A DNA stretch of 32,000 bases from Desulfobulbus propionicus DSM 2032 (GTDB lineage: Bacteria; Desulfobacterota; Desulfobulbia; Desulfobulbales; Desulfobulbaceae), in NCBI RefSeq assembly GCF_000186885.1, contig NC_014972.1, positions 630,001 through 662,000 of the forward strand, written 5' to 3'. The notes beneath the pieces are model-generated. The model was not told the DNA's origin and did not search any database. It saw only the letters and a list, made by a program, of their open reading frames with translations. Shown here in pieces: positions 129 through 31,139 of the stretch. Both the position numbers and the translations under genes were made by a program. Numbering within the stretch: the stretch's first letter is position 1; each line of letters opens with the position of its first letter.

Positions 129-255
129 TCTTCGTGGAATGAGACACCGGCGCCGTGCCTGCGGCATTCCGACTGCTCCCCGACGCATCACGCTGACTGT
201 TCAACCCTGTCGCGGCCATCAGACGATCGGCCGGCAACTTTTCTGTGGTGGCTGT

Positions 256-834: not shown

Positions 835-1607
835 AATCGCTCGTGCTCATGATTCAGTTCATGACCCGCTATCCGATTCCGCTGGAGATCGAGTTCACTG
901 CCCGCCACTTTGTCCAGGGCATGAAGTGGATGCCGCTGGTCGGCCTGCTCGCGGCCTTGCCGGGAGCTGTCGGGTTTGTCCTGGCCGATGCCTGGCTCGG
1001 CCGGGAGGTGGCGGCCATTGTCGCCGTCATCCTGCTGATCACCGTCACCGGCGGCCTGCACCTCGACGGGATCGCCGACACCGCCGACGGCCTGTTCAGC
1101 TATCGGTCCCGCGAGCGGATGCTGGAAATCATGCGCGATTCCACCCTGGGGGCCAATGGGGTGATCGCCCTGGTGCTGACGATTCTGCTCAAGTTCATCC
1201 TGCTGCACAACATTGCGGATGACGGCGCGCTGCTGGCGGTGCTGCTCACCCCGGTACTTGGGCGCATGGCCCTGACCTGGCATTCGGCGGTGGCTCCTTA
1301 TGCCCGGGAGGAGCGGGGCATCGGCGATTACGTCAACCAGACCGGGCTTGCCCAGGCCGTGGCCGCCACCCTGCTGTCCCTGTGCCTGGTGAGCGTCCTG
1401 CTGGGGATGTTCGGCCTGCGGCCGGCATTGATCCCCGTGGTCACCGTGGTCCTGCATCTGCCGTCGATCGTGCTGGCGGTGCTGTTCGCCGCCTATCTCA
1501 GGCGGAGGCTGGGCGGGATCACCGGCGATACCATCGGGGCCAGCATCGAGCTGGCGGAGCTCCTCAGTTTTCTCGTCTTTCTTCTTGTGTGGAAATATAT
1601 GCTATGA
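831..1607 (+). CDS. cobS: Adenosylcobinamide-GDP ribazoletransferase (cobalamin 5'-phosphate synthase)
   Basis: N-terminus 'LMIQFMTRYPIP', a polytopic membrane profile and the 'GGLHLDGIADTADG' motif are typical of CobS. ATGA overlaps on both sides. Confidence 0.85.
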   Translation: MKSLVLMIQFMTRYPIPLEIEFTARHFVQGMKWMPLVGLLAALPGAVGFVLADAWLGREVAAIVAVILLITVTGGLHLDGIADTADGLFSYRSRERMLEIMRDSTLGANGVIALVLTILLKFILLHNIADDGALLAVLLTPVLGRMALTWHSAVAPYAREERGIGDYVNQTGLAQAVAATLLSLCLVSVLLGMFGLRPALIPVVTVVLHLPSIVLAVLFAAYLRRRLGGITGDTIGASIELAELLSFLVFLLVWKYML

Positions 1608-2203
1608 ACACGACCAAGCTGTATCTCATTCGCCACGGCGAGACCGAACAGAATAAAACCGGCATCCTCATGGGCAGCACCGACACCCCGCTCAACGATC
1701 ATGGACGGCTGCAGGCGGCCTCGTTGCGGGAGCGGATCAACGCCCTGGAGGTGGACACCATTTTTTCCAGCCCACTGTCGCGGGCGGTGGAAACCGCCAC
1801 CCTGGTATTTGGCGAGCAGGTCCCGATCATCACCGATTCCAGTCTGCAGGAATTCCACTTCGGCGAATGGGAGGGTATGCACTTTTCGCAGATCGCCACC
1901 CAGTATCCGGACATCTGGCAGATGTGGCTCACCGACTGGGAACAGACCCACATTCCCGGCGGCGAGGCCTTTCCCGCCTTCAAGCAGCGGGTGATCTCCT
2001 TTGCCGCCGAGGTGGTCAACCAGCATCCGGGCCAGCGGGTGGCCATGGTGTCGCACGGCGGTTGCATCCGTTCGCTCCTGGCCCATTTTTTCTGCGAGTC
2101 GGTGTCCAAGGGCTACTGGAAGTTCAAGGTCGACAATGCCACCCTGACCGAAATCGAATTCATGGGCAATTTGCCGATCCTCATCCGCTTCAACTACCGC
2201 TGA
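1604..2203 (+). CDS. cobC: Alpha-ribazole phosphatase (histidine phosphatase family)
   Basis: Start MNTTKLYLIRHGETEQN carries the RHG motif of the phosphoglycerate-mutase-like family. Position between cobS and cobT supports the call. Upstream ORF-track extension 1382-1603 rejected. Confidence 0.75.
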   Translation: MNTTKLYLIRHGETEQNKTGILMGSTDTPLNDHGRLQAASLRERINALEVDTIFSSPLSRAVETATLVFGEQVPIITDSSLQEFHFGEWEGMHFSQIATQYPDIWQMWLTDWEQTHIPGGEAFPAFKQRVISFAAEVVNQHPGQRVAMVSHGGCIRSLLAHFFCESVSKGYWKFKVDNATLTEIEFMGNLPILIRFNYR

Positions 2204-2211
2204 GAGACGCC

Positions 2212-3306
2212 ATGCACCTGCTGCAAAAGACCTTGGAGGCCATCAAACCCATCGACCGCGCGGTCATGGCCGCCGCGCAACGGGAGATCGACTATTGCCT
2301 CAAACCGCCGGGCAGCCTGGGCAAGCTCGAAGACATCGCCCGCCAGATCGCCGGCATCACCGGCAAGGTGCACAATAGCATCGGCAAGAAGGCGATTGTG
2401 GTGATGATGGCCGACAACGGCGTCTATTCCGAGGGGGTCGCCATGTACCCCCAGGACATCACCCGCATCGGCGCCGACTTCGTCACCTCTGGCCGCATGG
2501 GGGTCAATTTTCTCGCCAACTACGCAAAAGCCGACATCATTGCCGTGGATATCGGCATTCAGGTCGATGTCGACCTCCCCAAGGTGCTCAACCGGAAGAT
2601 CCGTTACGGCACGGCCAATTTCCTCAAGGAGCCGGCCATGACCCGGGAGGAGGCAATCCGTGCCGTCGAGGTGGGCATCGAGGTCACCAACGCGGCCATC
2701 GATCAGGGCTACGATCTGATCGGCACCGGCGAGATCGGCATCGGCAACACCACTGCCAGCAGCGCCGTGCTCTACGCCTTCACCGGTGCGCCCATCGACC
2801 GGGTGGTGGGGCGGGGCGCGGGCCTGACCGACGAGGCCTTTGCCCGCAAGAAGGCGGTGGTCCAGGAGGCGGTGCGGCTGCATCGGCCCGACCCGGACGA
2901 TGCCCTGGATGTGCTGTCCAAGGTGGGCAGCCTCGATATCGCCGGCATGGCCGGCACCTACCTGGCCTGCGCCGCCCGGCGGGTGCCGGTGCTCACCGAC
3001 GGATTGATCTCCAACGTGGCGGCGCTGGTGGCCATGCGCCTTAAGCCCGAGACGGTCGAGTACATGATCCCCTCGCACATCTCCTTTGAACCGGGGGCCA
3101 AACTGCTCAAGGAGATCACCGGCCTGGAACCGATGATCGACATGGACATGCGTCTGGGCGAGGGCACCGGCTGCGCCCTGGTGTTTTCCATCGTCGAGGC
3201 GGCGCTGCGCATGATCGAGGAAATGGGCACCTTTGCCGTCATAGGAAAAACACGCGATGAAATTGGGGACCACATCATGGCTTACCGGGGAAAATTTCCT
3301 CGATAA
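2212..3306 (+). CDS. cobT: Nicotinate-nucleotide--dimethylbenzimidazole phosphoribosyltransferase
   Basis: MHLLQKTLEAIKPID...LKPPGSLGKLEDIA...GEIGIGNTT...MRLGEGTGC are CobT hallmark stretches. The ATG at 2212 follows the cobC stop by 8 nt. Confidence 0.85.
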   Translation: MHLLQKTLEAIKPIDRAVMAAAQREIDYCLKPPGSLGKLEDIARQIAGITGKVHNSIGKKAIVVMMADNGVYSEGVAMYPQDITRIGADFVTSGRMGVNFLANYAKADIIAVDIGIQVDVDLPKVLNRKIRYGTANFLKEPAMTREEAIRAVEVGIEVTNAAIDQGYDLIGTGEIGIGNTTASSAVLYAFTGAPIDRVVGRGAGLTDEAFARKKAVVQEAVRLHRPDPDDALDVLSKVGSLDIAGMAGTYLACAARRVPVLTDGLISNVAALVAMRLKPETVEYMIPSHISFEPGAKLLKEITGLEPMIDMDMRLGEGTGCALVFSIVEAALRMIEEMGTFAVIGKTRDEIGDHIMAYRGKFPR

Positions 3307-3898
3307 CGCCCGTCTGGTGGCCGGGCAGGTCGATTTTGTCGAACTACTGGTCTATACCTGGGACCGGGCGATGCGCGCCAAGGTTGGCGGGTGGCTCGAT
3401 GGCCTGGCCGGTCTGGATCTCGAATACACGGTCCATCTGCCCACTGATACGGCGGCAAACGCCCAGGCCGCGGCCCGTTTTTTCGCCGACAGCACCTTTC
3501 CCCTGCTCAACATGACCCTGCATCCGCTGCCGGGATGGCGGCAAGTGGACTGGCCAGCCCTTGTGGCGATGGAAAACCTGATCGACCGGATCGAGTTCCA
3601 CCCGCGCTTCACCTTTGATCTCACCCACAGCCTGCTGGGCAGGCCGCTGCCCGAACACTATCATCCCCACATCGTCGAACTGCATCTCTCCGGCACCGAC
3701 GGCCGTATCGATCATCTGCCGCTCGACGAGGCCACCCTGCGCCGGGCGATGCCGCTGCTTTGCGAGAACATGCTGGTTTGCTGCGAAATTTTTGATCTAA
3801 ACGATGCCCTGCGTGCGGTCGAGGCAATAAGGCGGACGGCCGATGCGGCCGGCAGGGGAAGCCGGTCGGCATCCAATCAGGCGGCTGGCGGGGACTGA
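3257..3898 (+). CDS. Putative CbiR-like cobamide-remodeling phosphodiesterase / xylose-isomerase-like TIM-barrel protein
   Basis: N-terminus MKLGTTSW...FLDNARLVAGQVDFVELLVY resembles sugar-phosphate isomerase/AP-endonuclease-2 fold proteins found in cob operons (CbiR type). It lies in the cob operon and its start overlaps the cobT 3' end by 50 nt. The family call rests on memory and context. Confidence 0.45.
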   Translation: MKLGTTSWLTGENFLDNARLVAGQVDFVELLVYTWDRAMRAKVGGWLDGLAGLDLEYTVHLPTDTAANAQAAARFFADSTFPLLNMTLHPLPGWRQVDWPALVAMENLIDRIEFHPRFTFDLTHSLLGRPLPEHYHPHIVELHLSGTDGRIDHLPLDEATLRRAMPLLCENMLVCCEIFDLNDALRAVEAIRRTADAAGRGSRSASNQAAGGD

Positions 3899-10869: not shown

Positions 10870-11073
10870 GATTGTCGGTGCACACAGAGAGATTGTTTCA
10901 ATATCCTGAAATGTTATACGGAAAAAATCGGCGTGAAAGCCGGCCCCCTGTACTCTGCCATGGTCGGCATGAATTGCAACGAATTTCCACCCATCGCTGC
11001 CGCGAGGAACTGGACACGGCTTTGTTGTGCCCGGATGTTTTAATGCCCACGGCTCATAGGTTGTCTTTCCTCC

Positions 11074-11102
11074 TTGACAGCCAAAAGCCGGGTAAGGTAA
11101 AT
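11074..11102 (+). promoter_or_regulatory. Sigma70-type promoter for tRNA-Leu
   Basis: TTGACA (11074-11079), a 17-nt spacer, then GTAAAT (11097-11102), ending about 16 nt before the mature tRNA 5' end. Confidence 0.5.
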
Positions 11103-11118
11103 AGGACGACGCATTGAT

Positions 11119-11205
11119 GCCGGAGTGGTGAAACTGGTAGACGCACTGGACTCAAAATCCAGCGGGGGCGACCCCGTGTCGGTTCGATTCCGACCTCCGG
11201 TACCA
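11119..11205 (+). tRNA. tRNA-Leu (anticodon CAA), type II with long variable arm and encoded CCA
   Basis: Acceptor GCCGGAG/CTCCGGT, anticodon stem ACTGG/CCAG(C) with loop CT-CAA-AA, long variable arm GGGGGCGACCCCGTGT, T-arm CGGTTCGATTCCG, 3' ACCA. Total 87 nt. Confidence 0.9.
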
Positions 11206-11213
11206 GAAAATTC

Positions 11214-11254
11214 AAGGGCTTACAGAGATCGACTCTGTAAGCCCTTTTTTATTT
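11214..11254 (+). terminator. Strong rho-independent terminator after tRNA-Leu
   Basis: Perfect 14-bp stem AAGGGCTTACAGAG / CTCTGTAAGCCCTT, a 5-nt loop, then TTTTTTATTT. Confidence 0.85.
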
Positions 11255-11406
11255 GCTTGCATAACCTTCACATGCACATGGAGGCATTTTCCCCTCCCGT
11301 CTCAATATCCCACATGTAAGTGTAGCTGGCGCCAACCTTTCCTTGCAACCGCTTCAAGGCATAGCAGGATGCATCCGGGGTACCTTGATTAACGAATAAT
11401 TTGGTA

Positions 11407-11434
11407 TTCTGTCCCCAAAATTCTGTCCCCAAAA
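11407..11434. repeat. Perfect tandem duplication of a 14-nt unit, TTCTGTCCCCAAAA x2
   Basis: Read directly: 11407-11420 is identical to 11421-11434. Located in the non-coding part of the low-GC islet. Confidence 0.9.
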
Positions 11435-11610
11435 TTTCCAAATCTATTGAATAAAACGCTTTAAGCGGTTCACAATCTTTTCAAGCCACCGGCTTTGCTG
11501 GTAGTGACCGACTGCATTTGACTCAGGGCTACATTCTAAGCCTTGAGGCGATCTTTGTTGTCTTCAATAGTCATGACAATCCAAGCACCTGCTTGGCGGT
11601 ACTCAGTCCG

Positions 11611-11703
11611 TCATGTATGGCGCTCACTTTGGATATTCTTTCCAGGAGCGCATCCGGCAATGAAGACGAGGAACATTGCAAGGCAAATCAGTTTAGGCGG
11701 CAT
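11611..11703 (-). CDS. Possible 30-aa lipoprotein-signal ORF (small lipopeptide or remnant of a lipoprotein gene)
   Basis: MPPKLICLAMFLVFIAGCAPGKNIQSERHT has a hydrophobic core plus a canonical lipobox I-A-G-C. Only a weak SD, and the mature part would be just 13 aa. Confidence 0.25.
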   Translation of the reverse strand: MPPKLICLAMFLVFIAGCAPGKNIQSERHT

Positions 11704-12034
11704 GGGATGTATTCTCAAAGATTTTTCCGGCACCGTGAAGAGAAAAAAAGGACCCTTTTTCTTGAACAGTTGCCGTTTTGGGACCTGTTTTCTTCTCCGT
11801 TTGATTATTCTGGTCATGTTCAAGCTTTCGTTTTTTTTCAAGCTCTTCCATTTCCTTTTCTATTTTTTCTTGCCTCTCCTTGTTCTTCTGCGTTTCCTCA
11901 GGTGTTAGCGGTGTGCGCTCAGGCGGAGATTTAGAGATATCAACCCGCGGCGCTGCGGTGCATGCGGTGTGTCCCAGCACAAATGAAACGGTTGTAAACA
12001 TGGCGAGCAAGCAGCACAGGATCTTGACATTCAT
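11693..12034 (-). CDS. Small secreted Lys/Glu-rich hypothetical protein
   Basis: MNVKILCCLLAMFTTVSFVLGHTACTAAP is signal-peptide-like and is followed by a charged EK-rich region. The opposite-strand ORFs are Phe/Leu-rich antisense artefacts. Low-GC region. Confidence 0.4.
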   Translation of the reverse strand: MNVKILCCLLAMFTTVSFVLGHTACTAAPRVDISKSPPERTPLTPEETQKNKERQEKIEKEMEELEKKRKLEHDQNNQTEKKTGPKTATVQEKGSFFSLHGAGKIFENTSHAA

Positions 12035-12152
12035 TTCCCTTCCATCTCCTCTCATTGCGTCCCCAACACCTCGCTGGTCGCGATTCGATTCATGTTGAAT
12101 GATACCAGTTTGGCATCATTTCAAAGTATTATATCTGTCGATTGAAAAAAGA

Positions 12153-12185
12153 AAACCGGGAAGTGCTGGCGGCACTCCCCGGTTT
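12153..12185 (-). terminator. Orphan intrinsic-terminator-like hairpin (functional orientation: minus strand)
   Basis: Stem AAACCGGGAAGTGC / GCACTCCCCGGTTT (one A.C mismatch) with a 5-nt loop. On the minus strand it is followed by TTTTCTTTTTTC. No ORF of 60 aa or more lies upstream of it on that strand. Confidence 0.45.
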
Positions 12186-12453
12186 CAATACATGCCGCCA
12201 AGAACTCATCAGCGAAATTGATGAACCCCGATCCCTTCATGCCGCATGAAATCACGACTTGAAGAAATATCGAGAGGCGCGTAATTCAGTTGACCGGGTC
12301 GATTTTTTATATTTTTTTCAAAGACGGCACGAACGTGCAGCCGAGGAGCAAGGTATATTGAAAAAGTTGACTGGCGAAAAAAAAGAAACCAGATTCAATT
12401 GATCGGATTCTCGTTCTTGAGGTGCATCATGAGAATATTGCGCTGACCTGGCC

Positions 12454-13215
12454 ATGGAGAAACTCATGGCCAATATCGAAGTTCCTGCTCCTTTCAAGGC
12501 GCTCCTTTCAGGGTGGTCTTTGATTGTGGTCGTTCTCTCGGTTGCTGGGTACTCGTTTCGTTGGAATTACTACTATAATTTCGGATTACAGAGTCTTGTC
12601 CTTTCCGCGCCTCTTGAGAGCCTGCCCGTATACGCGATCGAGATTGCCCGAAATCCCAGGTTTTTCATCGATCTCCTGCAACTAGGATTGGTGTATCTTC
12701 TCCCCTGTCAGCTCACCTTGCTTGCGCTGCGCAGGGCAGCCGATGTCGAGAATGAGAAAATCCGCACGGCAACGCGTTTTGTCGTGCACGCGCTTGCCCT
12801 CGATAAACCGCTCCTGGTCGATGCCCTGCTTGCTCTTCTCCTTTTGATCGTTGCTTTTCAGGCCGGCGGTGAAGCCGGGTACCGGGCCTACCTGACCAAC
12901 GCGGCAGAGGGGACGTCCCGGCTTCCAAAGGTGACCGTCATTTCCCGCATTGACTCCAAGCTGCCGTTTATTGGCTGTAATACCAGCACGTTCAAAAAAA
13001 GTGATCCGTCCATGACTCCCCGGTTTGTAGGAGAGCCAAGCGTGATCGATTCGCTGATGGCCGGCAAGGCGTGTACTTCCGAGCAATGGAGTTGGCGATT
13101 GTTACTCCGTGACGAAAAGTTCGTTTATTTGTTTGCCACAGTCAAAGATCCAAAGGAGCGGCCAGAAACCCTTGTCCTCCCCAATAGCGAGGACATAACC
13201 CTTGTCTTTCGATAG
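12454..13215 (+). CDS. Hypothetical membrane protein (3 predicted TM segments plus a C-terminal soluble domain)
   Basis: Hydrophobic segments LLSGWSLIVVVLSVAGYSF, FFIDLLQLGLVYLLPCQLTLLAL and LLVDALLALLLLIVAFQAG. The alternative start at 12466 (MANIEV) has GGAGA 5 nt upstream. No family recognised. Confidence 0.5.
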   Translation: MEKLMANIEVPAPFKALLSGWSLIVVVLSVAGYSFRWNYYYNFGLQSLVLSAPLESLPVYAIEIARNPRFFIDLLQLGLVYLLPCQLTLLALRRAADVENEKIRTATRFVVHALALDKPLLVDALLALLLLIVAFQAGGEAGYRAYLTNAAEGTSRLPKVTVISRIDSKLPFIGCNTSTFKKSDPSMTPRFVGEPSVIDSLMAGKACTSEQWSWRLLLRDEKFVYLFATVKDPKERPETLVLPNSEDITLVFR

Positions 13216-13223
13216 GAGGAGGT

Positions 13224-13781
13224 ATGAGGCGCGTGTTTTTTCTATTGGTTGTTGCCGTACTGATAGGCGGAGGCGGGGTAACATGTGCACGCGGCGCGGG
13301 CCTTGGTGACAAGGCTGAATCGCCGGTCCCATGCATCGATACGACGGACGATTTGACCATCTGGATCCAGGTGGCTGGAAACGAGACGATGCCACCGCAA
13401 AGGGTATACGGCAAATTCACATCATGGGACCCGCAGACGACAACGATCGGTTTCCAATCGGCGCTGTCGCAAACGATTGAACAGATCCCCCTCAAGTCCA
13501 TTCGCCTTGAGCCAAGCAGGCCGCATCCCGCGGCTCAGGTAGCCCTACCGACCTTGGTGTCGCGCGGTATTGTTTCTCGAACCTACCCGGCGTCCGAACT
13601 GAGCGTTGTCGACGGCGTTCTCAAGTTTCCTGAGTGCCGTTTCATGTCCGGCGATCACCGGCTCGTTTTTGCAGGCGCCCTCACCGTTGCTGGTGGGGAA
13701 ATACATCTTCAAGGCGAGGTGTTCGAGGCCGTACCTCCACGCGGTGGTGACGGGAGGAGCACTGGCCCCAAGGGAGGGTGA
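13224..13781 (+). CDS. Hypothetical secreted protein (185 aa)
   Basis: Strong SD AGGAGGAGG before the ATG, 8 nt after the upstream stop. N-terminal signal-like MRRVFFLLVVAVLIGGGGVTCARG. No family recognised. Confidence 0.55.
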   Translation: MRRVFFLLVVAVLIGGGGVTCARGAGLGDKAESPVPCIDTTDDLTIWIQVAGNETMPPQRVYGKFTSWDPQTTTIGFQSALSQTIEQIPLKSIRLEPSRPHPAAQVALPTLVSRGIVSRTYPASELSVVDGVLKFPECRFMSGDHRLVFAGALTVAGGEIHLQGEVFEAVPPRGGDGRSTGPKGG

Positions 13782-14003
13782 GGCGTTGAGCTTGCCCTAA
13801 GCAAGGGGCGGACCGCCTTTTTGCATTCGAGTAAGCGTTCCTCTGGCTAGGGTGACCGAAGGCGGTTGACTGTCGAAGATGCGGCGGTCAGCACAACCAG
13901 GGGCTCAGACGCACGTTGCCCCGGCAGACGGGCAGTGGTTGGAGTCCTTCTACACGGGTGCGTCGTCCAGGGCACCCTGGGCGCATCCAAGGAAACCTAT
14001 TCT

Positions 14004-17699: not shown

Positions 17700-19946
17700 T
17701 TATCGCCGGCGACCTCCGCCTCCACCCCTGCGGTCAAAGGATCGCGGGGCCGGGGTACTGCGAACCTGACTGGCCCGAGCACTCTGGGCATTGCCCCATT
17801 GCCGCGCACTGGCCTGCCGCTCCAGGGTGCGGGAATCAATACCGGCCTGCGGCGTCGGCCGTGACCAGCCGCCACTGCCGCCGCGTTGGCTCCAGTTGCC
17901 GTTGCTGTCCTTCTTGTAGACGTGGCCGTTGCGGCCGGCATAGACATTGCCTTCCGGGCCCTTGACCACGGCGCCCTGGCCGCGCCGGGTATCCCAGGCC
18001 ACGGCGCCGGTGCCCTCGCTGGTCTTGACCCCGGCCGCCTGGCCACGGACGGTGGAACGGGAACCGCCCTTAACCGATTTATCGCCCTTTTCCGCATAGA
18101 AGCGGCTGGCCGAGCCGCGCGGGGTGCTGACCGTGCCGCGTTCCGCATAGCCACCGGTATTCGGGTTATAGGCCTGACGGTACGATGCGCTGCCGCCGGG
18201 CCCATAGACATAGCCGCCCCGGGTGTAGGTGCCGGTGTTGGCGTTGTAGGTGGCTCCCCGGCCGGCCCCGCCATAGGGACCATAGGCCCGGGTCGCGGCA
18301 TACGAGCCGCCCGGTCCATAGGCGCCGTAATGGGAGACATAGCCGCCATAGCCATGGTTGTACACTGCGGCGCGGCCATAGGAATAGTAGGGGGCGGGAT
18401 AATAGTGGTGGTGATCCCAATCCTCCCAGTTGTCGATCAGGGCCGCGGTCAACAAGCCCATGCCGAACATCACCACCCCTGTGGTGGCGACATATTCGCC
18501 GCTGTAGCCGGAGGTTTGATTGTAGACCACGGTGGAGGGGGTGGACTCCTGCACGGTCACATAGGTCACGTTGTGGGCCGGATGAGTAGCGGGAATGGCG
18601 TAGATGGCCGGTGGCACCGAGGTGCAGTAGACCCAGGGGCCATTGGGCGACGAGCTGGTCAGCCAGGTGCCGTTGCTGCACCAGTAATAGGCGTTGTCCA
18701 CCAGAAAGATCTGGCTGGGCGTGTTGACCGCGGACTGGACACTGGTCCCCTGAATGGGAGCAAACTTCGGTTCGCCGCTGTATTGGGCCGTCGCCTGCAC
18801 TGGGCCGGCCGCCACCTTGGTGCTGGTCGGCACCGAGGCCAACAGGATGGCATCCTTGGCCTCGCGGGTTCCGGGCACCGAGGCCTTGACAAAGGCCGCG
18901 TCGCTGTCTGTCGGGATATGGGCGAAATCAACGGGCAGATCCAGGCTGGCCGGGGTCCAGGGCCCATCCAAGGACTTGGCGCGAAACCAACGGCCAGCCA
19001 CCAGGAAATAGAACTGCGCTTCGCGACTGTGGAGGAAAAGCGGGCTGCCGGTGTTGGCCACCTGCAGCAACGCGGTGGCGGGGACAGGGGTGTAGCGCGG
19101 CTCTCCTTCGATCAGGATCAGCTCGGCCGGTTCGGTGGCGGCAAAGACCACCGGGACCTCGCTCCCGGTCTTGCCGGGAATGTTGGTGCGCACCTCGGCC
19201 CAATTCTCCGTATCCGGCAGGGTGGACATGACCTGTGGCAACGTTTTGACCGCGGTCCACGGGCCGGCCAAGGGGTCCTTGGCGGTCAGCCATTGGTTGC
19301 CATCGAGGAGGAAATACTGCTGGCTTGCGGTATCAAAAAAGATATCCCAGTTGGCATTGACCGCGAACATCAGGTCGGTGCGATTGGCGTCCACCGGCTT
19401 GAAGGCGGGCTTGCCCATGAACATGACCAGAATGGCCGGCGTGCTGCTGTGGAAGATCCTGGGCGGCTGAATGTTGACCTCGACCGGCTTTTGCCGCATG
19501 TGCTGTTCCGGCTCCAGGTAGGCCAGCACCCGGTCCAGGGAGACCACGGTCACCTCTTTTCGCGGCAGCAACGTATTGACCACCGCGCTCAGGCGGGCGG
19601 CCTCGGTCTCGGGGATGTTGGCAAAACGGAGTTCGCGCCGCACCGGCCGGGCCACCACCTCGCGGGTGGAGTGGTCGACGGTGGTGTTGGCCTCCACCTC
19701 GGCCACGCCGAACCGCTCCTTGGCCTCGGCACCCTCCTTGACGCTGATGGCGCAACGGAACTGGAGCGTGGCGTAGTTGTTCCAGGAATCGACCTGGGGC
19801 TGGTAGACGGTGAGCCGCTTGTCGTCGCGCTCGATGATCCGGGGCCAGCCGGAATCGCCAGCGGCGGTCTGGGGTTGCGCCCCGCAGGGGAACGGCGCGA
19901 GCATGAGCAGCAGGAGGAGCGAACACAGGACAACAGGGTATCTCAT
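17700..19946 (-). CDS. Large bitopic envelope protein: signal peptide, ~470-aa extracytoplasmic domain with repeated GxW...GPW motifs, one TM helix, ~240-aa Gly/Tyr/Ser/Arg-rich tail
   Basis: GGAG 8 nt upstream of the ATG at 19946. MRYPVVLCSLLLLLMLAPFPCGAQP. Repeats 'FLLDGNQWLTAKDPLAGPWTAV', 'FLVAGRWFRAKSLDGPWTPA', 'YWCSNGTWLTSSSPNGPWVY'. TM 'TGVVMFGMGLLTAALI'. Tail ends 'RRGGGGGRRR'. No family name recalled with confidence. Confidence 0.75.
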   Translation of the reverse strand: MRYPVVLCSLLLLLMLAPFPCGAQPQTAAGDSGWPRIIERDDKRLTVYQPQVDSWNNYATLQFRCAISVKEGAEAKERFGVAEVEANTTVDHSTREVVARPVRRELRFANIPETEAARLSAVVNTLLPRKEVTVVSLDRVLAYLEPEQHMRQKPVEVNIQPPRIFHSSTPAILVMFMGKPAFKPVDANRTDLMFAVNANWDIFFDTASQQYFLLDGNQWLTAKDPLAGPWTAVKTLPQVMSTLPDTENWAEVRTNIPGKTGSEVPVVFAATEPAELILIEGEPRYTPVPATALLQVANTGSPLFLHSREAQFYFLVAGRWFRAKSLDGPWTPASLDLPVDFAHIPTDSDAAFVKASVPGTREAKDAILLASVPTSTKVAAGPVQATAQYSGEPKFAPIQGTSVQSAVNTPSQIFLVDNAYYWCSNGTWLTSSSPNGPWVYCTSVPPAIYAIPATHPAHNVTYVTVQESTPSTVVYNQTSGYSGEYVATTGVVMFGMGLLTAALIDNWEDWDHHHYYPAPYYSYGRAAVYNHGYGGYVSHYGAYGPGGSYAATRAYGPYGGAGRGATYNANTGTYTRGGYVYGPGGSASYRQAYNPNTGGYAERGTVSTPRGSASRFYAEKGDKSVKGGSRSTVRGQAAGVKTSEGTGAVAWDTRRGQGAVVKGPEGNVYAGRNGHVYKKDSNGNWSQRGGSGGWSRPTPQAGIDSRTLERQASARQWGNAQSARASQVRSTPAPRSFDRRGGGGGRRR

Positions 19947-20015
19947 GGCCATTTCTCCAATAAAAGGATGAAGAAGACAACCTCCCTTCGCCGAAGGGTG
20001 GTCATTGCAGGACAA

Positions 20016-22761: not shown

Positions 22762-23418
22762 TTAGGCCGGCAGCAGCTCGCGCCAGTCGGCAAGCAGGTA
22801 GAAGGGGAAATGGGGCCAGGTGTGGACCGTGCCGCAGCCCTTGCCCCAGGCGCGCATCTGGTTGCGGCCGGAAAAGATTCGGTCGCGGCTGGTGATGATC
22901 TTGTGGTCATAGAGGTCGGCCGCCGGACCGGCTTGGGTAAAGGCGTCGCGGAAGGCGGCCATCTCCTCGCGCAGGGCGGGTAGGTCGCGCTGCGGCCGAG
23001 TGGCCAGGAAACGGGCGAGCTGGTGGTCGTCGTCGAACATGTTGCGGTAGAAGCTGTCCAGCACCTCCTGGCTGAAATGGTCGAGCATCTCGGCGTAGTT
23101 GTCCGACGGGATGCCGCGCTGCTGGTCGATCGGCGTCAGGGTACCGCCAAGAGCGGTGCGTGAGGCAAAGGCTGTGGGCCGGTCGGCCAGCAGATGGGCC
23201 GCCACCCACACCCCCATGGACCAGCCGATCAGGTGCAGCCGCTGGTAGCCGGCAAAGGGGGCGAGGTCGATCGGTGCCAGCTGTCGGTAGTCGTGGAACA
23301 GGCAGACATCGTGGGCCGCCGCCTCCAGACCGTCAAAGGGAGTCGGGTCCATGCCCCAGCCGCTGAAAAAGAGGATGCATTCCCGGTGCGGCCCGCGCTT
23401 GAGCCAGTCGCTACGCAT
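22762..23418 (-). CDS. bioG: Pimeloyl-ACP methyl ester esterase BioG (DUF452)
   Basis: 'ILFFSGWGMDPTPF...LIGWSMGVWVA' (GWSMG nucleophile elbow), ~218 aa. Its start overlaps the bioF stop by 8 nt. Confidence 0.75.
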   Translation of the reverse strand: MRSDWLKRGPHRECILFFSGWGMDPTPFDGLEAAAHDVCLFHDYRQLAPIDLAPFAGYQRLHLIGWSMGVWVAAHLLADRPTAFASRTALGGTLTPIDQQRGIPSDNYAEMLDHFSQEVLDSFYRNMFDDDHQLARFLATRPQRDLPALREEMAAFRDAFTQAGPAADLYDHKIITSRDRIFSGRNQMRAWGKGCGTVHTWPHFPFYLLADWRELLPA

Positions 23419-24607
23419 GGTCGGCCTCCTCCAGGGCGGTTTTGATAATCGCGGGCAGCGGCGCCAGTTGCTCCCAGTCCATGGCCGCGTTGAGCGACAG
23501 CCGCAGGCGCGAGGTGCCGGCCGGCACCGTGGGCGGCCGGACTGCCTTGACCCAGTAGCCGGCCTCGCAGATGCGCTCGGCCGCGTTCACGGTCCGGGCG
23601 GCGTCGCCGACCAGCACCGGCACGATGTTGCTGCTGCCGTCGGTGCGCAGGCCGAGGCCGCGCAGGGCTTCGCGGAAACGGGCGGCCAGCTGGTCGACCT
23701 TGGCCCGCTGCTCGCGCATCAGGGGGATGTGGCGGAGCACGAAGCACAACCAATGGACCGATACCGGCGGCAGGCCGGTGCTGAAGATCTGCGAGCGGGC
23801 GGTATTGAGCAGGTAGTCGATCAGCAGGCGCGAGCCCACCACAAAGGAACCCTGGCCGCCGAAAGCCTTGCCGAAGGTGCCGGTGAGGATCTCGATCTGC
23901 CGGTGCACTCCCTGTTCCTCGGCCAGGCCGAGGCCGTTGTCGCCGCGGATGCCGACCCCGTGCGCCTCGTCGACGTAGAGCGCGGCCCGGAAACGGTCCT
24001 TGATCCGCACCAATTCGGCCAGATCGGCGGTGTCGCCGTCCATGCTGAAGATTGATTCAGTGACGATGATCACCTGGCGAAATCGGGCCCGGTCCTTGGT
24101 GAGCACCTGCTCGACCGCCGCATAATCGAGATGCGGGTAGCGGATGACCTTGGCCCGCGACAGGCGCATGCCGTCGATCAGGCTGGCATGGCAGAGTTTG
24201 TCGGCCAGGATCAGATCCTGTTTGCCGGTCAGGGCCGGCAGCAGGCCGATGTTGATGTGGTAGCCCGAATTGAACACCAGGGCCGCCTCGGCCTGGTACA
24301 GGGTACAGAGCAGTTCCTCCAGCCGGGCATAGGGCAGGGTGTTGCCGGTCATCAACCGTGAGGCGGTACTGCCCAAGCCGTAGCGTTCCAGCAGGGTGTC
24401 GCTGTTCTGCTCGCTGTAAAAGGCCTGGAGCAGCTCCCGATTGGTGGCCAGGCCGAGGTAATCGTTGCCGGCGAGGTTGAGATAGCGGCGGCCGTCAATG
24501 TCGATCCGGCCACGGTCGAGGTGGGTGACCGGCACCAGTTGGCGCCGCTGCCCCTGGCGCTCGATCTCGGCCAGCGCTTCGCTTAGAGAAGGGTCGAGAA
24601 CGGACAT
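23411..24607 (-). CDS. bioF: 8-amino-7-oxononanoate synthase
   Basis: MSVLDPSLSEALAEIERQG...YLNLAGNDYLGL...DEAHGVG...GTFGKAFG (PLP lysine context). The ORF-track extension 24608-24856 is out of frame with, and overlaps, the upstream gene, so it was rejected. Confidence 0.85.
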   Translation of the reverse strand: MSVLDPSLSEALAEIERQGQRRQLVPVTHLDRGRIDIDGRRYLNLAGNDYLGLATNRELLQAFYSEQNSDTLLERYGLGSTASRLMTGNTLPYARLEELLCTLYQAEAALVFNSGYHINIGLLPALTGKQDLILADKLCHASLIDGMRLSRAKVIRYPHLDYAAVEQVLTKDRARFRQVIIVTESIFSMDGDTADLAELVRIKDRFRAALYVDEAHGVGIRGDNGLGLAEEQGVHRQIEILTGTFGKAFGGQGSFVVGSRLLIDYLLNTARSQIFSTGLPPVSVHWLCFVLRHIPLMREQRAKVDQLAARFREALRGLGLRTDGSSNIVPVLVGDAARTVNAAERICEAGYWVKAVRPPTVPAGTSRLRLSLNAAMDWEQLAPLPAIIKTALEEADHA

Positions 24608-24611
24608 GGGG

Positions 24612-24950
24612 TTATTCCACGAGTTGGCTGTACAGGCTGTCGCTGAAGCCGACCAGCAGCCGGTCGCCGATCCGCAGGGTGGGGGCGCGCAGGTTGCCGG
24701 TTCGGCCCAGGGCCTGGGCAAGAATCGCTTCTTTGCTGTCGGTGCGCGGATCGAACACTTGATAGGTCTTGCCCTTGGCCACCAGGATCTCCCGGGCGCC
24801 GGCCAACAATTTCCAGGCCTCCTCGCCAGCGAGCGATTCCTTGCGGGCATCGGCAACCCGTTCCGGGGGCAAGGTATGACGGTTCAGCACATCCTGTGCC
24901 TTGGCGCACGAGGCTCAGCCTTTTCTCAAATAGGCCCATTCAATCTGCAT
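24612..24950 (-). CDS. ArsC/Spx/YffB-family thioredoxin-fold protein with in-frame UGA (candidate selenocysteine at codon 12, motif U-A-S-C)
   Basis: On the minus strand: GGAGG, 4 nt, then ATG CAG ATT GAA TGG GCC TAT TTG AGA AAA GGC TGA GCC TCG TGC..., in frame with the 92-aa ORF 24612-24890. The C-terminus 'LLVGFSDSLYSQL' parallels YffB 'LLGFSDSSYQQF'. The TGA sits where the family has its N-terminal redox Cys (CxxC-like). Confidence 0.7.
24886..24900 (-). promoter_or_regulatory. SECIS-like hairpin downstream of the in-frame UGA
   Basis: mRNA GGCAC-AGGAU-GUGCU, with stem G.U, G-C, C-G, A-U, C-G and apical loop AGGAU. It starts 15 nt after the UGA. An alternative overlapping hairpin is GUGC-GCCAAG-GCAC. 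Confidence 0.4.
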
Positions 24951-25011
24951 ACATCCTCCATTGGCTCCAGAAAACGGGGCAACAGTGCAACAACGTGGCA
25001 AACAGCGCATC

Positions 25012-25040
25012 ATTATAGTCCCGGATGGCCGGGATCACCA
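25012..25040 (-). promoter_or_regulatory. Candidate sigma70 promoter for the selenoprotein-bioF-bioG operon
   Basis: On the minus strand: TGGTGA (-35, 3 of 6), a 17-nt spacer, then a perfect TATAAT. An A-tract lies upstream. About 60 nt upstream of the ATG at 24950. Confidence 0.4.
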
Positions 25041-25075
25041 CTTTTTTTCCAGAGAAAGGGCTGCGCCCGGGTGGT

Positions 25076-26209
25076 TTACCCCACCCGGTTGCCGAGACAG
25101 GCATCGGTTTCCAGGGCGGCCCGGATCCAGGGATGGTCAAGCGGCACGGTCTTGCGCTTGCCGACCACCTGGGCGAGGTCCACCAGTTCGGTGGATTCGC
25201 CCTTGACCGCGACCATGCAGCCGAATTGCCGTTCATTGACCGCGGCCACGCAGGCGGAACCGAGCCGGGTGGCCAGGATACGGTCGGCGGCCGTGGGGGT
25301 GCCGCCGCGCTGCAGATGGCCGAGGATGGTCACCCGGCTTTCCAGTCCGGTGAGGGCCTCCAGCTGGGCCGAGAGCCGCAGGGTGTTGGTGGCGTGGTTG
25401 GCCTGAAAGGCGGCCAGGGCGGCGGCGGCCTTTTTCTGCTTCTTGTCGTCCTTGAGCGCCGCCTGTTTCTTGTCCTGCAGCCGCGCCAGCTCCTTGGCGT
25501 CCTCCAGCGCCAGGGCGCCCTCGGAAACGGCAACAATGCTGAAGTTCTTACCCCGGTGCCGCCGCCTGCGGATCGCCTCGGCCACCTGGGTAACGTCGTA
25601 GGGGATCTCGGGGATGAGGATCACGTCGGCGCCGCTGGCCAGGCCGGCGCCCAGCCCCAGCCAGCCGGTGTTGTGGCCCATGATCTCGACCACGATGATC
25701 CGGTGGTGGCTGTGGGCGGTGGAATGGAGGCGGTCGATGGCGTCGGTGGCGATCGACAGGGCGGTGTCGAAACCAAAGGTGATGTCGGTCATGGCCACGT
25801 CGTTGTCGATGGTCTTGGGCAGGGTGATGACATTCACCCCGGCCTGGGCCAGCCGATAGGCGTTTTTCTGGGTGCCGCCGCCGCCAATGCAGATCAGGGC
25901 CTCGAGGTTGTGGCGGTGGTAGTTGTCGATCATCACCTCGGTCATGTCCTGGACCTTGGAACCGACCGGCATCTTGTGCGGCTTGTCGCGGCTGGTGCCG
26001 AGGATGGTCCCGCCCAGGGTGAGGATGCCGGAGAGGATCTCGCCCTCCAGGTGAACGGTACGGTTCTCCATCAGGCCGCGAAAGCCGTCGCGAAAACCGA
26101 TCACCTGCATGTTGTAGGCGTTGAGCGCGCTCTTGCCGATGGCCCGGATGGCTGCATTGAGACCGGGGCTGTCGCCGCCGGCGGTCAGGACGCCGATGCA
26201 TTTTCCCAT
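25076..26209 (-). CDS. pfkA: ATP-dependent 6-phosphofructokinase
   Basis: [23 protein letters not shown], 'ICIGGGGT', 'LPKTIDNDV', 'MGHNTGW', 'LGHLQRGG'. Contains an extra Lys/Ala-rich segment at about aa 234-280. Confidence 0.85.
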
Positions 26210-26391
26210 GGATGTTCCTCCGCGATTCCCTTGATGGCACCTTGTCGTTCCCTGTTTTTAACCATATCGACATCCGGGGCGCAACAATCCTCATCAAATC
26301 CTAACCGAGGCCGAACCTGTCTTTAACATGGCACCGATACCTTTCCCTCAGTTACGGCGGGATGGGCCCGCCGGCCTCTGATGGAGTGTGC

Positions 26392-27777
26392 ATGTCACCC
26401 CTGCTGCTGATCACCATTGTTTTTCTCCTGTCGTCCCTGGCCTTCTGGCTGGGCAAACGGCGCGCCCTCGTCCTCGCCGGCCGTGGGAGCGGTGTGCGGA
26501 TGCACTCCCGGCCCGGCTATTACGGTCTGCTCACCGGTCTGTGGTGCGGCCTGCCCGCCCTGCTGGTGATCGTCGCCTGGCAGCTGCTGGCCGAACCCCT
26601 GCTCACCCGTTTGGCCATGGACAGCGTGGTGGCCGCCAAGGGGTCGCTGAGTCCGGAACAGCTGGGCCTGCTGACCAACGACCTGCGGAACCTGGTGGCC
26701 GGCAGACCGCTCGGCCTGGCGGTCGATCCGCTGCTCCAGGCCGCCGCTGACCGCTATCTGGGCATGGAACGCATCAGCGACCTGGCTCTGGCGGCGACGG
26801 CCCTGGCCGCCGGCCTGATTGGCGCCTCGGTGCTCCATGGCCGCATCCGGCCGGGTCTGCGGGCGCGCAACCAGGTCGAGCTGGCGATCGAAATCGCCCT
26901 CATCCTCTGTTCCATCCTGGCGGTGTTCATCACCATCGGCATCGTGCTCTCGGTGCTGTTCGAGTCGATCCGCTTCTTCCAGCAGGTGCCGTTCACCGAT
27001 TTCCTTTTCGGTCTCAAGTGGAGCCCGCAAATGGCCATCCGCGCCGACCAGGCCGGCAGTTCCGGCAGCTTCGGCGCCGTGCCGGTGCTCGCCGGCACCT
27101 TTCTCATCTCGGCCATTGCCATGGCCATCGCCGTGCCCTTGGGCCTGATGTCGGCCATCTATCTTTCCGAATATGCCGGGCCAAAATTCCGGGCCACGGT
27201 CAAGCCGCTGTTGGAAATCCTGGCCGGGGTGCCCACGGTGGTCTACGGTTTTTTCGCCGCCCTGGTGGTGGCGCCGCTGATCCGCGATCTGGGTGGCGTG
27301 TTCGGCCTGTCGGTGGCCTCGGAGAGCGCCCTGGCCGCTGGCCTGGTCATGGGGATCATGATCATCCCCTTTGTCAGCTCGCTGTCCGACGACGTGATCA
27401 ACGCCGTGCCCCAGTCGTTGCGCGACGGCTCCTACGGACTGGGCGCGACCAAGAGCGAGACCATCAAGCTGGTGGTCCTGCCCGCCGCCCTGCCGGGCAT
27501 CGTCGGCTCGATCCTGCTGGCGGTGTCGCGGGCCATCGGCGAGACCATGATCGTGGTCATGGCCGCCGGCCTGGCCGCCAACCTGACCCTCAACCCGCTG
27601 CAGGCGGTGACCACGGTGACCGTGCAGATCGTCACCCTGCTGGTCGGCGACCAGGAGTTCGACAGCCCCAAGACACTGGCCGCCTTTGCCCTGGGCATGC
27701 TGCTGTTCGTGGTCACCCTGGCGCTCAACGTCATCGCCCTCTACGTGGTGCGCACATACCGGGAAGAATATGAATAA
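26392..27777 (+). CDS. pstC: Phosphate ABC transporter permease PstC (long form)
   Basis: Polytopic. EAA-like loop 'SLRDGSYGLGATKSETI'. GGAG lies 5 nt upstream of the ATG at 26392; the alternative ATG at 26362 lacks an SD. Overlaps the pstA start. Confidence 0.8.
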   Translation: MSPLLLITIVFLLSSLAFWLGKRRALVLAGRGSGVRMHSRPGYYGLLTGLWCGLPALLVIVAWQLLAEPLLTRLAMDSVVAAKGSLSPEQLGLLTNDLRNLVAGRPLGLAVDPLLQAAADRYLGMERISDLALAATALAAGLIGASVLHGRIRPGLRARNQVELAIEIALILCSILAVFITIGIVLSVLFESIRFFQQVPFTDFLFGLKWSPQMAIRADQAGSSGSFGAVPVLAGTFLISAIAMAIAVPLGLMSAIYLSEYAGPKFRATVKPLLEILAGVPTVVYGFFAALVVAPLIRDLGGVFGLSVASESALAAGLVMGIMIIPFVSSLSDDVINAVPQSLRDGSYGLGATKSETIKLVVLPAALPGIVGSILLAVSRAIGETMIVVMAAGLAANLTLNPLQAVTTVTVQIVTLLVGDQEFDSPKTLAAFALGMLLFVVTLALNVIALYVVRTYREEYE

Positions 27778-29038
27778 CGACATTTCCACCATGGACCGGG
27801 TCAAGGTCGGCCTGGTCGCCCGCTACCGCCGGGAACGCCGCTTCCGAATGTTTGGCCTGACAGCCATTGTCGCCAGCCTGCTGTTTCTGGTCCTGCTGCT
27901 CGCCTCGATCGGCGCCAAGGGCTACACCGCCTTCCGCCAGAGCGAGATCCTGCTCGACATCCATTTTGACCCGGCGGTGCTCGACGTCGACAACCTGGCC
28001 ACCGCCAACTACGCGGCCCTGGTGCGGGAGGCGGTTCTGGCCCTGTTCCCCGAGGTGGAGAGCCGCCAGGACAAGCGAACCGTGGCCAAGCTGGTCAGCA
28101 GCGGCGCGGCCCATGCCCTGCAGGCGATGGTGATGGCCAAGCCCGAGTTGATCGGCACCACCCGGGCCGTCTGGGTGACGGCCGACGACGAGGTGGACAT
28201 GTTCGTCAAGGGCCACATTCCCCGCGACGTGCCCGAGTCGGAACGACGGATCAGCGACCAGCAGGCGGCCTGGATCGACCGGCTGATCGAGGCCGGGCGG
28301 CTGGAACAGCGGTTCAACGCCGCCTTCTTCCAGGCCGGTGACTCGCGCGAGCCCGAGCTGGCCGGCATCCGCGGCGCCACCATGGGTTCGCTCTTCACCC
28401 TGGCCGTGACCCTGGTGCTCAGCTTTCCGGTGGGCGTGGCCGCGGCGGTCTATCTGGAAGAGTTCGCTCCCAAGAACCGCTGGACCGACCTGATCGAAGT
28501 CAACATCAACAACCTGGCCGCGATCCCCTCGATCGTTTTCGGCCTGCTCGGCCTGGCGGTGTTCCTCAATTTCCTCGGTCTGCCGCGTTCCTCCTCGCTG
28601 GTCGGCGGCCTGGTGCTGACCCTGATGACCCTGCCGACGATCATCATCGCCAGTCGGGCCTCGCTCAAATCGGTGCCGCCCTCGATCCGCGAGGCGGCCC
28701 TGGGGGTGGGCGCCTCCAAGATGCAGACCATCGCCCACCACGTTCTGCCCCTGGCCCTGCCGGGGATGATGACCGGGGCGATCATCGGCATGGCCCGTGC
28801 CCTGGGCGAGACCGCGCCGCTGTTGATGATCGGCATGGTGGCCTTCATCGTCGACGTGCCCCAGGGGTTCCATGATCCGGCGACGGTGCTGCCGGTCCAG
28901 ATCTACCTCTGGGCCGACAGCCCGGAACGGGCCTTTGTCGAACGGACCTCGGCGGCGATTATGGTCCTGCTCGTGCTGCTGCTGGCCATGAACGCCGCCG
29001 CGGTCTTGTTGCGCAACAAATTCGAACGCCGTTGGTAA
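27770..29038 (+). CDS. pstA: Phosphate ABC transporter permease PstA (long form)
   Basis: MNNDISTMDRVKV...; 'SIREAALGVGASKMQTI' EAA loop; polytopic. The ATG at 27770 overlaps the pstC stop. Confidence 0.8.
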   Translation: MNNDISTMDRVKVGLVARYRRERRFRMFGLTAIVASLLFLVLLLASIGAKGYTAFRQSEILLDIHFDPAVLDVDNLATANYAALVREAVLALFPEVESRQDKRTVAKLVSSGAAHALQAMVMAKPELIGTTRAVWVTADDEVDMFVKGHIPRDVPESERRISDQQAAWIDRLIEAGRLEQRFNAAFFQAGDSREPELAGIRGATMGSLFTLAVTLVLSFPVGVAAAVYLEEFAPKNRWTDLIEVNINNLAAIPSIVFGLLGLAVFLNFLGLPRSSSLVGGLVLTLMTLPTIIIASRASLKSVPPSIREAALGVGASKMQTIAHHVLPLALPGMMTGAIIGMARALGETAPLLMIGMVAFIVDVPQGFHDPATVLPVQIYLWADSPERAFVERTSAAIMVLLVLLLAMNAAAVLLRNKFERRW

Positions 29039-29139
29039 GCAACACACAATCGAAACGGTTTGCTAACCCGGTACAAATATTGAGCTGCTACCTTTTTTTC
29101 AACCAACTTGTTCATCAACTTTACCAAGGAGATTGTCCC

Positions 29140-30192
29140 ATGCACAAATGTATGCTTTCCCTGGCCGCCGCTTCCCTGCTGCTCGGCACCGCCACCCTTG
29201 CCCCGGCCGCCGACGGCCGCGACTACATCTCGATCGTCGGTTCGTCCACGGTCTACCCCTTTGCCACCGCCGTGGCCGAGCAGTTCGGCAAGTCGACCAA
29301 GTTCAAGACCCCGAAGATCGAATCGACCGGCACCGGCGGCGGCATGAAGCTGTTTTGCGCCGGCGCCGGCGTCGACACCCCTGACATCGCCAATGCCTCG
29401 CGGCGGATGAAGCCGGCCGAAATGGATACCTGCCGCAAGAACGGCGTGGCCGAGGTGGTGGAGGTCAAGGTCGGCTACGACGGCATTGTCATCGCCAACA
29501 GCAAGAAGGCCGAGCCGATGCAGCTCAGCCGCAAGGAGCTGTTCCTGGCCCTGGCCAAGGAAGTGCCCAGCCCCGAGGGCGGCGACAAGCTGGTGGCCAA
29601 TCCCTACACCACCTGGAAGGAGATCAACAAGGAGCTGCCGGACAGCAAAATCGAGGTGCTCGGCCCACCGCCCACCTCCGGCACCCGCGACGCCTTTGTC
29701 GAGCTGGTGATGGACGAGGGCTGCACCGCCTTTGATTCGATCAAGGCACTGAAAAAGAGCGACGAGAAGAAATTCAAGGCCGTATGCCAGACCGTGCGCG
29801 AGGATGGCGCCTACGTCGAGGCCGGCGAGAACGACAACCTGATCGTGCAGAAGCTGGAGGCCAATCCCAAGAGCCTGGGCATCTTCGGCTTCAGCTTCCT
29901 CGACCAGAACGCGGACAAGATCCAGGGCGCGGTGGTCGACGGCGAGGCCCCGACCTTCGACAACATCGCCGCGGGCAAGTACGCGGTGTCCCGGCCGCTG
30001 TACATCTACGTCAAGAAGGCCCATGTGGGTGTGATCCCCGGCATGGCCGAGTATCTGGCCGAGTTCACCAGCGACCGCGCCTGGGGCGAGGAAGGCTATC
30101 TGGCTGAAAAAGGCCTGATCCCCGCGCCCGCGGAGGAGCGGACCCGGATGGCCGCCGACGCCAAGGCCCTCAAGCCGGTGGCGCTCGACTGA
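29140..30192 (+). CDS. pstS: Phosphate ABC transporter substrate-binding protein (PstS/PhoT family)
   Basis: AAGGAG SD. Signal peptide [24 protein letters not shown]. '[12 protein letters not shown]', 'STGTGGG', 'ANASRRMK', 'PTSGTRD' phosphate-binding family motifs. Confidence 0.8.
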
Positions 30193-30263
30193 TCATCGGC
30201 ACAAGACCGCCGGGGGATCGTTTCGGTCCTCTGGCGGATACGGAACACAATGGAGTCACAACC

Positions 30264-31139
<876 letters not shown>

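Follow-up and report, generated by a model that had tools for sequence, protein, structure and literature searches.

A predicted ArsC-like selenoprotein gene of family NF041106 upstream of bioF in Desulfobulbus propionicus, entered in public databases in truncated form

The 32,000-nt stretch of Desulfobulbus propionicus DSM 2032 DNA analyzed here (the window) carries, on its minus strand, a short gene with one in-frame TGA codon, which lies between an upstream PFK gene, from which it is separated by a 125-nt spacer, and the biotin genes bioF and bioG. The features of this locus, listed in the direction of transcription, are as follows.

25012..25041, minus strand: putative promoter-like block, with GTGGTG (25041-25036) at the -35 position, a 17-nt spacer and TATAAT (25017-25012)
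24955..24959, minus strand: Shine-Dalgarno sequence GGAGG, 4 nt before the ATG
24612..24950, minus strand: complete coding sequence of the predicted selenoprotein, 112 codons plus a TAA stop, from the sequence and its translation; product MQIEWAYLRKG-U-ASCAKAQDVL...SQLVE
24950-24948, minus strand: start codon ATG; the start Met stands at codon -11 in nearly all loci
24915..24917, minus strand: UGA, predicted selenocysteine (Sec) codon for residue 12; TGA in 79 of 80 species loci, TGC in locus L027
24906..24908, minus strand: UGC codon of Cys15, the likely resolving residue of U-x-x-C; aligned with Spx Cys13
24886..24900, minus strand: SECIS hairpin; 5' arm 24900-24895, apical loop GGA 24894-24892, 3' arm 24891-24886
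24888..24890, minus strand: GTG (Val+9), the false start of the 92-aa annotation and in reality a SECIS stem codon; GUG in 54 of 54 clade A loci
24614-24612, minus strand: stop codon TAA, from the sequence
23411..24607, minus strand: bioF, 8-amino-7-oxononanoate synthase; PF00155, and TIGR00858 at 422.9 bits, just under the cutoff of 426.45
22762..23418, minus strand: bioG, pimeloyl-ACP methyl esterase; PF04301 at 87 bits; overlaps the end of bioF

A mechanical list of open reading frames reports only a 92-aa ORF at this locus (24612-24890), which begins at the GTG. Upstream of that GTG, the same frame reads, in order, the 11 codons of MQIEWAYLRKG, the TGA and the 8 codons of ASCAKAQD. A preliminary description, made from the sequence alone, had placed an ATG at 24950 behind a GGAGG, the TGA at 24915-24917 and the GTG at 24890, and every one of these positions proved correct on the minus strand. 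It had also proposed that the gene is a candidate selenoprotein gene, a reading that is now supported by the full-length match to a protein family, the conservation of the TGA, the selection acting on the upstream codons and the comparative data on the SECIS element.

Public databases contain the short form. The gene is entered as 92 aa in GenBank (ADW16787.1), and the best database matches are a 100%-identical 92-aa JGI entry, followed by Despr_0611 of D. propionicus DSM 2032 (92 aa, 'hypothetical protein/Glutaredoxin'), which is 99% identical. A search of 5.8 billion proteins yielded 153 relatives, most of them called at ~92 aa, and more than 100 homologs (among P0001-P0120) are cut at the same residue, that is, at the GTG of Val+9. 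The full-length protein, written with C, X or W at residue 12, had no exact match in the protein collection.

The comparative set consisted of 80 loci recovered in one scan of species-representative genomes; most are from Desulfobulbales, and Thermodesulfatator MAGs, a Desulfococcaceae isolate and a Poribacteria MAG are also represented. In all 80 species, tblastn alignments run across the position of the TGA. The Sec column reads TGA in 79 loci and TGC (Cys) in the remaining one, L027, and the invariant GRTGNLRAP motif follows this column at a distance of exactly 70 codons in every locus. The 11 upstream codons follow the conserved consensus M-x-[IV]-[DE]-W-[AM]-Y-[LFM]-R-K-G, and their third positions are free (entropy, 0.95 to 1.8 bits). 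Since the N-terminal residues are kept while the third positions vary, these 11 codons bear the signature of translated sequence and are under purifying selection. The ORF past the UGA is likewise conserved with synonymous variation, and the locus shows an in-frame UGA with protein-level conservation on both of its flanks. In this comparison of related genomes, the TGA and its flanking sequence greatly exceed what chance would produce. Two doubts expressed in the preliminary description are thereby removed. The first was that the upstream codons might lack conservation in related genomes, and they are conserved at the amino acid level with free synonymous sites. The second was that homologs might begin at the GTG; the ~92-aa starts in the databases are an artifact, since the DNA of the 80 species has the N-terminal codons.

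TGA-bearing members of the family were also found outside Desulfobulbales (L024, L053, L069 and L084), in the Thermodesulfatator MAGs, the Desulfococcaceae isolate and a 4.0-Mb 'Candidatus Poribacteria' chromosome. Either the gene has been transferred horizontally beyond Desulfobulbales, or the taxonomy of these genomes is mis-assigned.

The further suggestion that a SECIS-like hairpin follows the UGA held only in part when the window was considered by itself. The hairpin is present: it occupies nt 18 to 32 counted from the U of UGA, starting 14 nt past the UGA, and it has 6 bp, including one G-U pair, a GGA loop and a local dG of -6.0 kcal/mol. As a single-sequence fold, however, it is no better than chance. 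Folding of the 48- and 66-nt stretches after the UGA gave z values of +0.2 and +0.7 relative to dinucleotide shuffles, and of the 875 TGA trinucleotides in the window, the GC content of which is 62.6%, 404 (46%) are followed by some hairpin of this general kind (5 bp or more, with a G near the start of the loop). An Rfam search (evalue mode) returned sub-threshold noise only.

It is the comparative data that identify the hairpin as a SECIS element. RNAalifold applied jointly to all 81 sequences found no consensus helix because the clades use different SECIS registers; splitting the sequences by clade resolved the failure, and RNAalifold then recovered the helices of both clades unprompted. In clade A (54 aligned loci, window included), nt 17 to 23 pair with nt 27 to 33 around a GGN or GUC loop, and 93.9% of the cells are paired, compared with 25 to 52% when the 3' arm is slid. 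Covariation in this clade is weak (2 pairs, 3 cells) because the stem hardly varies. The third-position entropies at Ala+6 (GCA), Gln+7 (CAG) and Val+9 (GUG) are 0.14, 0 and 0 bits, respectively, whereas the other 38 codons for conserved residues range from 0.87 to 1.91 bits. Synonymous sites are thus frozen only at three stem codons, which indicates a constraint at the RNA level. This constraint also accounts for the systematic ~92-aa calls in public entries, because the SECIS stem fixes a GUG that gene callers take as a start.

In clade B (23 aligned loci, from Desulfocapsa and relatives), nt 19 to 26 pair with nt 30 to 37, the loop is GGC, GGU, GUA or GUU, and 93.2% of the cells are paired. 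Compensatory changes occur in five of the eight pairs, a number reached in none of 500 shuffles, and they sometimes alter the protein, as in the change of KAQEALE to KAWGALK in L071 and to KAWEALK in L076. The first base of the apical loop is G in all clade A and clade B loci. This family therefore offers a clean example of a single selenoprotein family with two SECIS registers, with covariation in one clade and frozen synonymous sites in the other.

Locus L027 (4037-4081), which corresponds to P0066, is the only Cys-type ortholog; it has TGC, the motif C-V-S-S and a one-residue N-terminal insertion. Six of its seven SECIS-like pairs still form, and the frozen GCA and GUG codons are lost, which suggests that Sec was replaced by Cys recently and that the SECIS is a remnant.

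With U read as C, the product matches NF041106 ('ArsC_rel_Se_1, ArsC family (seleno)protein') at 124 bits, relative to a cutoff of 85 (E = 3.7e-36), and residues 3 to 107 align with model positions 1 to 107 of 107, that is, over the full length of the model. The N-terminal redox column, at which members of this family have Sec (UGA) or Cys, is occupied by UGA in the window. Other models gave scores below their thresholds: Pfam ArsC (PF03960) reached 17.9 bits, relative to a gathering threshold of 24, with residues 7 to 107 on profile positions 1 to 76 of 79; Pfam Glutaredoxin (PF00462) reached 19.8 bits, relative to 22.9, over residues 7 to 30 only; and TIGR02196 reached 22 bits, relative to a cutoff of 88.6. 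Besides NF041106, the NCBIfam matches in the ArsC branch were Spx-type models only, all far under their cutoffs (TIGR01617, 17 versus 75 bits; NF002459, 14.4 versus 123; NF009885, 17 versus 152), and no arsenate reductase-specific NCBIfam model was among the matches of the product.

Structural evidence comes from an AlphaFold2 model of P0056, a 54%-identical full-length homolog, which was built from a 50-sequence alignment with W in place of U (pLDDT, 95.6; pTM, 0.88). The model has a beta strand at residues 2 to 8, helices at 13 to 24 and 42 to 50, an intervening strand at 28 to 34 and strands at 54 to 59 and 62 to 66; its C-terminal part comprises a helix at 73 to 80, strands at 91 to 94 and 97 to 100 and a helix at 104 to 110. 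In the model, residue 12 occupies the helix 1 N-cap, where thioredoxin folds classically have their redox site, and the prediction as a whole has the characteristics of the superfamily, namely, a thioredoxin-derived fold, a nucleophile at the helix 1 N-cap and a cis-Pro loop (R-x-P). A Foldseek search of the PDB with this model placed Spx first (E = 6.6e-5; TM, ~0.53), followed by YffB PA3664, ArsC-related proteins and then the glutaredoxins and NrdH. At the sequence level, phmmer aligned U12-A-S-C15-A-K-A with Spx C10-T-S-C13-R-K-A, U12 with the YffB Cys, and LRAP with LRRP in the cis-Pro loop. The proposal that the Sec occupies the position of the redox Cys of the ArsC/Spx/YffB proteins was accordingly borne out, the column being aligned with Spx Cys10 (CTSC) and with the YffB Cys. 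PDB searches found no solved structure of any NF041106 family member. A PDB profile search with the family alignment gave no real match, although the single-sequence search did align; the profile lost the N terminus because most of the alignment rows are truncated.

The host is a published Sec user. In Table S2 of Peng et al. 2016, on 'all Sec-utilizing organisms', D. propionicus DSM 2032 appears with 8 selenoproteins, and the related "Ca. D. rimicarensis", whose ortholog is L047, has all Sec biosynthesis genes (PMC7117923). Within the 32,000-nt window and the homologous loci, no sel genes or tRNA-Sec were found, and tblastn with Escherichia coli SelA, SelB and SelD gave no matches to the window or to any of the loci. 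The literature search returned nothing direct on D. propionicus selenocysteine or selenoproteins beyond the supplement of Peng et al., and the Sec competence of this organism rests on that published table.

Based on these data, we are highly confident that 24950-24612 on the minus strand is a single gene that encodes a 112-residue NF041106 selenoprotein, a member of the 'ArsC-like' group of sulfate-reducing Deltaproteobacteria. During translation, SelB carrying Sec-tRNA(Sec) would bind the hairpin at 24900-24886, and the UGA at 24917-24915 would then be decoded as selenocysteine rather than as a stop; we infer the actual insertion of Sec at this codon from sequence.

Three other explanations were weighed. 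The first is that the UGA is decoded by a route other than Sec insertion, through read-through by a near-cognate Trp or Cys tRNA or under a reassigned code. It might seem to draw support from 11 database homologs (in ENA, the full-length ones) that print W at the Sec column; however, this W is a gene caller artifact, since the DNA of P0056 has TGA, and it would have arisen where callers read TGA as sense, as under genetic code 4, in some metagenome calls. TGA is also the ordinary stop codon of 12 of the 23 genes of the window and occurs in frame only in the selenoprotein gene, which excludes a reassigned code. A SelB-type hairpin with a G-first loop is kept at a fixed spacing, the sole non-TGA ortholog has Cys, which is the standard counterpart of Sec, and the host is a published Sec user; we therefore regard non-Sec decoding as very improbable.

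The second explanation holds that the TGA is a true stop and that translation of the functional protein begins at GTG 24890 and yields 92 aa, with the 11 upstream codons representing a leader peptide or noncoding sequence. The gene is indeed called in this way in ADW16787.1 and in more than 100 database entries, and the short form still scores 85.7 bits on NF041106, barely at the cutoff of 85. Such a protein, however, would be missing the first strand of the fold together with its redox motif, and amino acid-level selection acts on the upstream codons in 80 species. The TGC ortholog reads straight through this region. No Shine-Dalgarno-like element precedes the GTG, whereas GGAGG is conserved before the ATG; in the alignment of the Desulfobulbus loci, the GGAG(G) block is kept immediately 5' of the aligned ATG. 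The invariance of the GTG itself follows from its being a stem codon, and translation from it as the functional start is extremely unlikely. The third explanation, a decaying pseudogene in which a Cys-type redoxin acquired a strain-specific nonsense mutation, would require only a single TGC-to-TGA change, but it is effectively refuted by the presence of TGA in 79 of 80 species at 43 to 86% protein identity, without any frameshift and with the 70-codon spacing unchanged, and by the agreement at this locus of four independent D. propionicus assemblies (the window is 99.84 to 99.92% identical at the nucleotide level to four D. propionicus-type contigs).

The interpretation as a selenoprotein is correct, but the product is already known, both from the curated family and from a description published in 2006. 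'ArsC-like' selenoproteins were listed in that year for Desulfotalea psychrophila and Desulfuromonas acetoxidans (Zhang et al., Genome Biol 7:R94, PMC1794560), and the name and taxonomy of NF041106 suggest that it is the same family. Compared with NF041106 and the 'ArsC-like' proteins of Zhang et al., the protein studied here has the same Sec at the N-terminal redox position and a Deltaproteobacterial sulfate-reducing host; there is no essential difference, and it is an ortholog. The BSepDB paper (2026) also takes an arsenate reductase-like protein to illustrate a query for which the database contains selenoprotein homologs, and NCBI already applies the '(seleno)protein' name to the orthologs P0066 and P0091. 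The only news concerning the gene itself is therefore that its public GenBank entry is truncated, and the practical value is small: the Despr_0611 record can be corrected from 92 aa to a 112-aa selenoprotein.

Sec/Cys pairs are well documented in thioredoxin-fold proteins, and the relationship of this protein to its Cys-containing neighbors can be described in some detail. Spx, the redox-sensing RNA polymerase-binding regulator of Bacillus and Streptococcus (PDB 1z3e, 6ghb and 3l78), is the best neighbor in both structure (Foldseek E = 7e-5) and sequence (phmmer E = 1e-3): CTSCRKA and UASCAKA occupy the same position, and the L-R-x-P cis-Pro loop followed by a VG[FY] strand is common to the two. 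Nevertheless, the TM score of ~0.53 is accompanied by an rmsd of 6 to 7 A, the model of the selenoprotein has a mid-region beta-hairpin (54-59/62-66), the selenoprotein has 112 aa compared with ~131 for Spx, and it has Sec rather than Cys and is Deltaproteobacterial. YffB (PA3664, PDB 1rw1) and the R773-type ArsC proteins (PF03960) belong to the same thioredoxin-derived branch, with their helix 1 N-cap nucleophiles aligned; YffB differs in having a single Cys without a resolving residue. Glutaredoxin, NrdH and other Sec redoxins (e.g., NF041212 'Uxx-star') have in common with this protein a thioredoxin fold and a redox residue at a helix N-cap, but the glutaredoxin and NrdH matches are weak only (PF00462, 19.8 versus 22.9 bits; Foldseek E values of 0.01 or worse).

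Three more specific assignments of the product were rejected. An Spx transcriptional regulator was set aside on the Spx HMM scores (12 to 17 bits, relative to cutoffs of 75 to 159). An R773-type arsenate reductase was rejected for want of a specific model match and of ars neighbors; there are no ars genes near the selenoprotein gene, which is flanked instead by PFK, bioF and bioG. A glutaredoxin was rejected because PF00462 falls under its gathering threshold.

The predicted product is a thioredoxin-fold redoxin of the Spx/YffB/ArsC branch, with Cys15 one turn after Sec12 (U-A-S-C). Its chemistry can be postulated from this arrangement: Sec12 most likely cycles between the selenol/thiol and selenenylsulfide states, thereby reducing a disulfide or persulfide-type substrate. 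Cys15 is conserved in 52 of the 54 clade A loci, and its position is occupied by Ser in the Sec-type loci L017 and L020 (U-x-x-S) and in the Cys-type L027. The Ser residues of L017 and L020 imply that the resolving Cys is not essential to the family, and with Ser at this position in all three loci, the protein may work with a single nucleophile, like ArsC or YffB.

The gene has two conserved neighborhoods. In the window, the ATG of bioF lies 4 nt past the stop codon of the selenoprotein gene, and the two genes are probably co-transcribed; in D. propionicus, the selenoprotein gene would be the first of a unit running into bioF and bioG. Same-strand adjacency to bioF was found in 42 of the 80 loci, with bioG adjacent in 41 (L005-L064), and the methyltransferase gene bioC comes next after bioG in 14 loci. 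The arrangement with bioF is kept at BioF identities of 53 to 87%. A MAFFT alignment of the upstream regions of 20 Desulfobulbus clade loci showed, in conserved order, GAAAATA, GTGGTG, 17 nt and TATAAT within the spacer; this conserved block lies 5' of the selenoprotein gene and not between that gene and bioF. A scan of 24400-25300 for sigma-70 and terminator consensus sequences called nothing, the TATAAT block included, and the block at 25012..25041 is proposed as promoter-like from its sequence pattern. A regular expression search 5' of the selenoprotein gene found no BirA operator-like palindrome. The literature searched does not mention a link between the selenoprotein and bioF-bioG.

In clade B, the selenoprotein gene is located 23 to 76 nt downstream of a gene for a 373-aa pyridine nucleotide-disulfide oxidoreductase, the best NCBIfam match of which is TIGR03169 'Nterm_to_SelD' (250 bits, under the cutoff of 310). 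The stop codon of the selenoprotein gene overlaps the start of a gene for a 269-aa rhodanese domain protein, and PerR and rubrerythrin are encoded downstream of the rhodanese. This flavoprotein reductase-redoxin-rhodanese unit was observed at L068:2826-6634 and at 10 to 13 other clade B loci (L065-L083), and the association is not mentioned in the literature searched.

The context thus differs from clade to clade, and a redoxin that depends on partners fits it better than does either an arsenate reductase or a transcription factor. Because the Desulfobulbaceae gene heads bioF-bioG(-bioC), its product could serve a redox step at the pimeloyl-ACP-to-KAPA stage of biotin synthesis, while the translationally coupled unit of Desulfocapsaceae suggests an NAD(P)H-driven persulfide/perselenide relay or a peroxide defense relay. 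We tentatively raise, as a possibility that we consider rather unlikely, that the family constitutes a dedicated 'selenoredoxin' whose physiological partners are encoded next door, as opposed to a generic redoxin. Both conserved neighborhoods provide testable leads to the function of this family, which has been known since 2006.

Several features elsewhere in the window were also recorded. Directly past tRNA-Leu(CAA) (11119-11205), the GC content falls from ~0.63 to 0.48-0.50 over 11000-13800, where the ORFs at 12454-13215 and 13224-13781 gave no Pfam or NCBIfam match; this region could represent a small island that was acquired horizontally at the tRNA gene. An ORF of ~750 aa at 17703-20015 on the minus strand has a clear signal peptide (MAMRYPVVLCSLLLLLMLAPFPCGAQ) and a C-terminal tail rich in Gly, Tyr, Ser and Arg; it had no match in Pfam or NCBIfam, and the 747-aa ORF opposite it is probably a shadow ORF. 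The window further contains, at 118-3898 and 26362-31139, the ordinary features of a cobalamin lower-ligand cluster (cobU, cobS, cobT and a partial CbiR-like gene) and a phosphate ABC transporter (pstC, pstA, a periplasmic binding protein and pstB).
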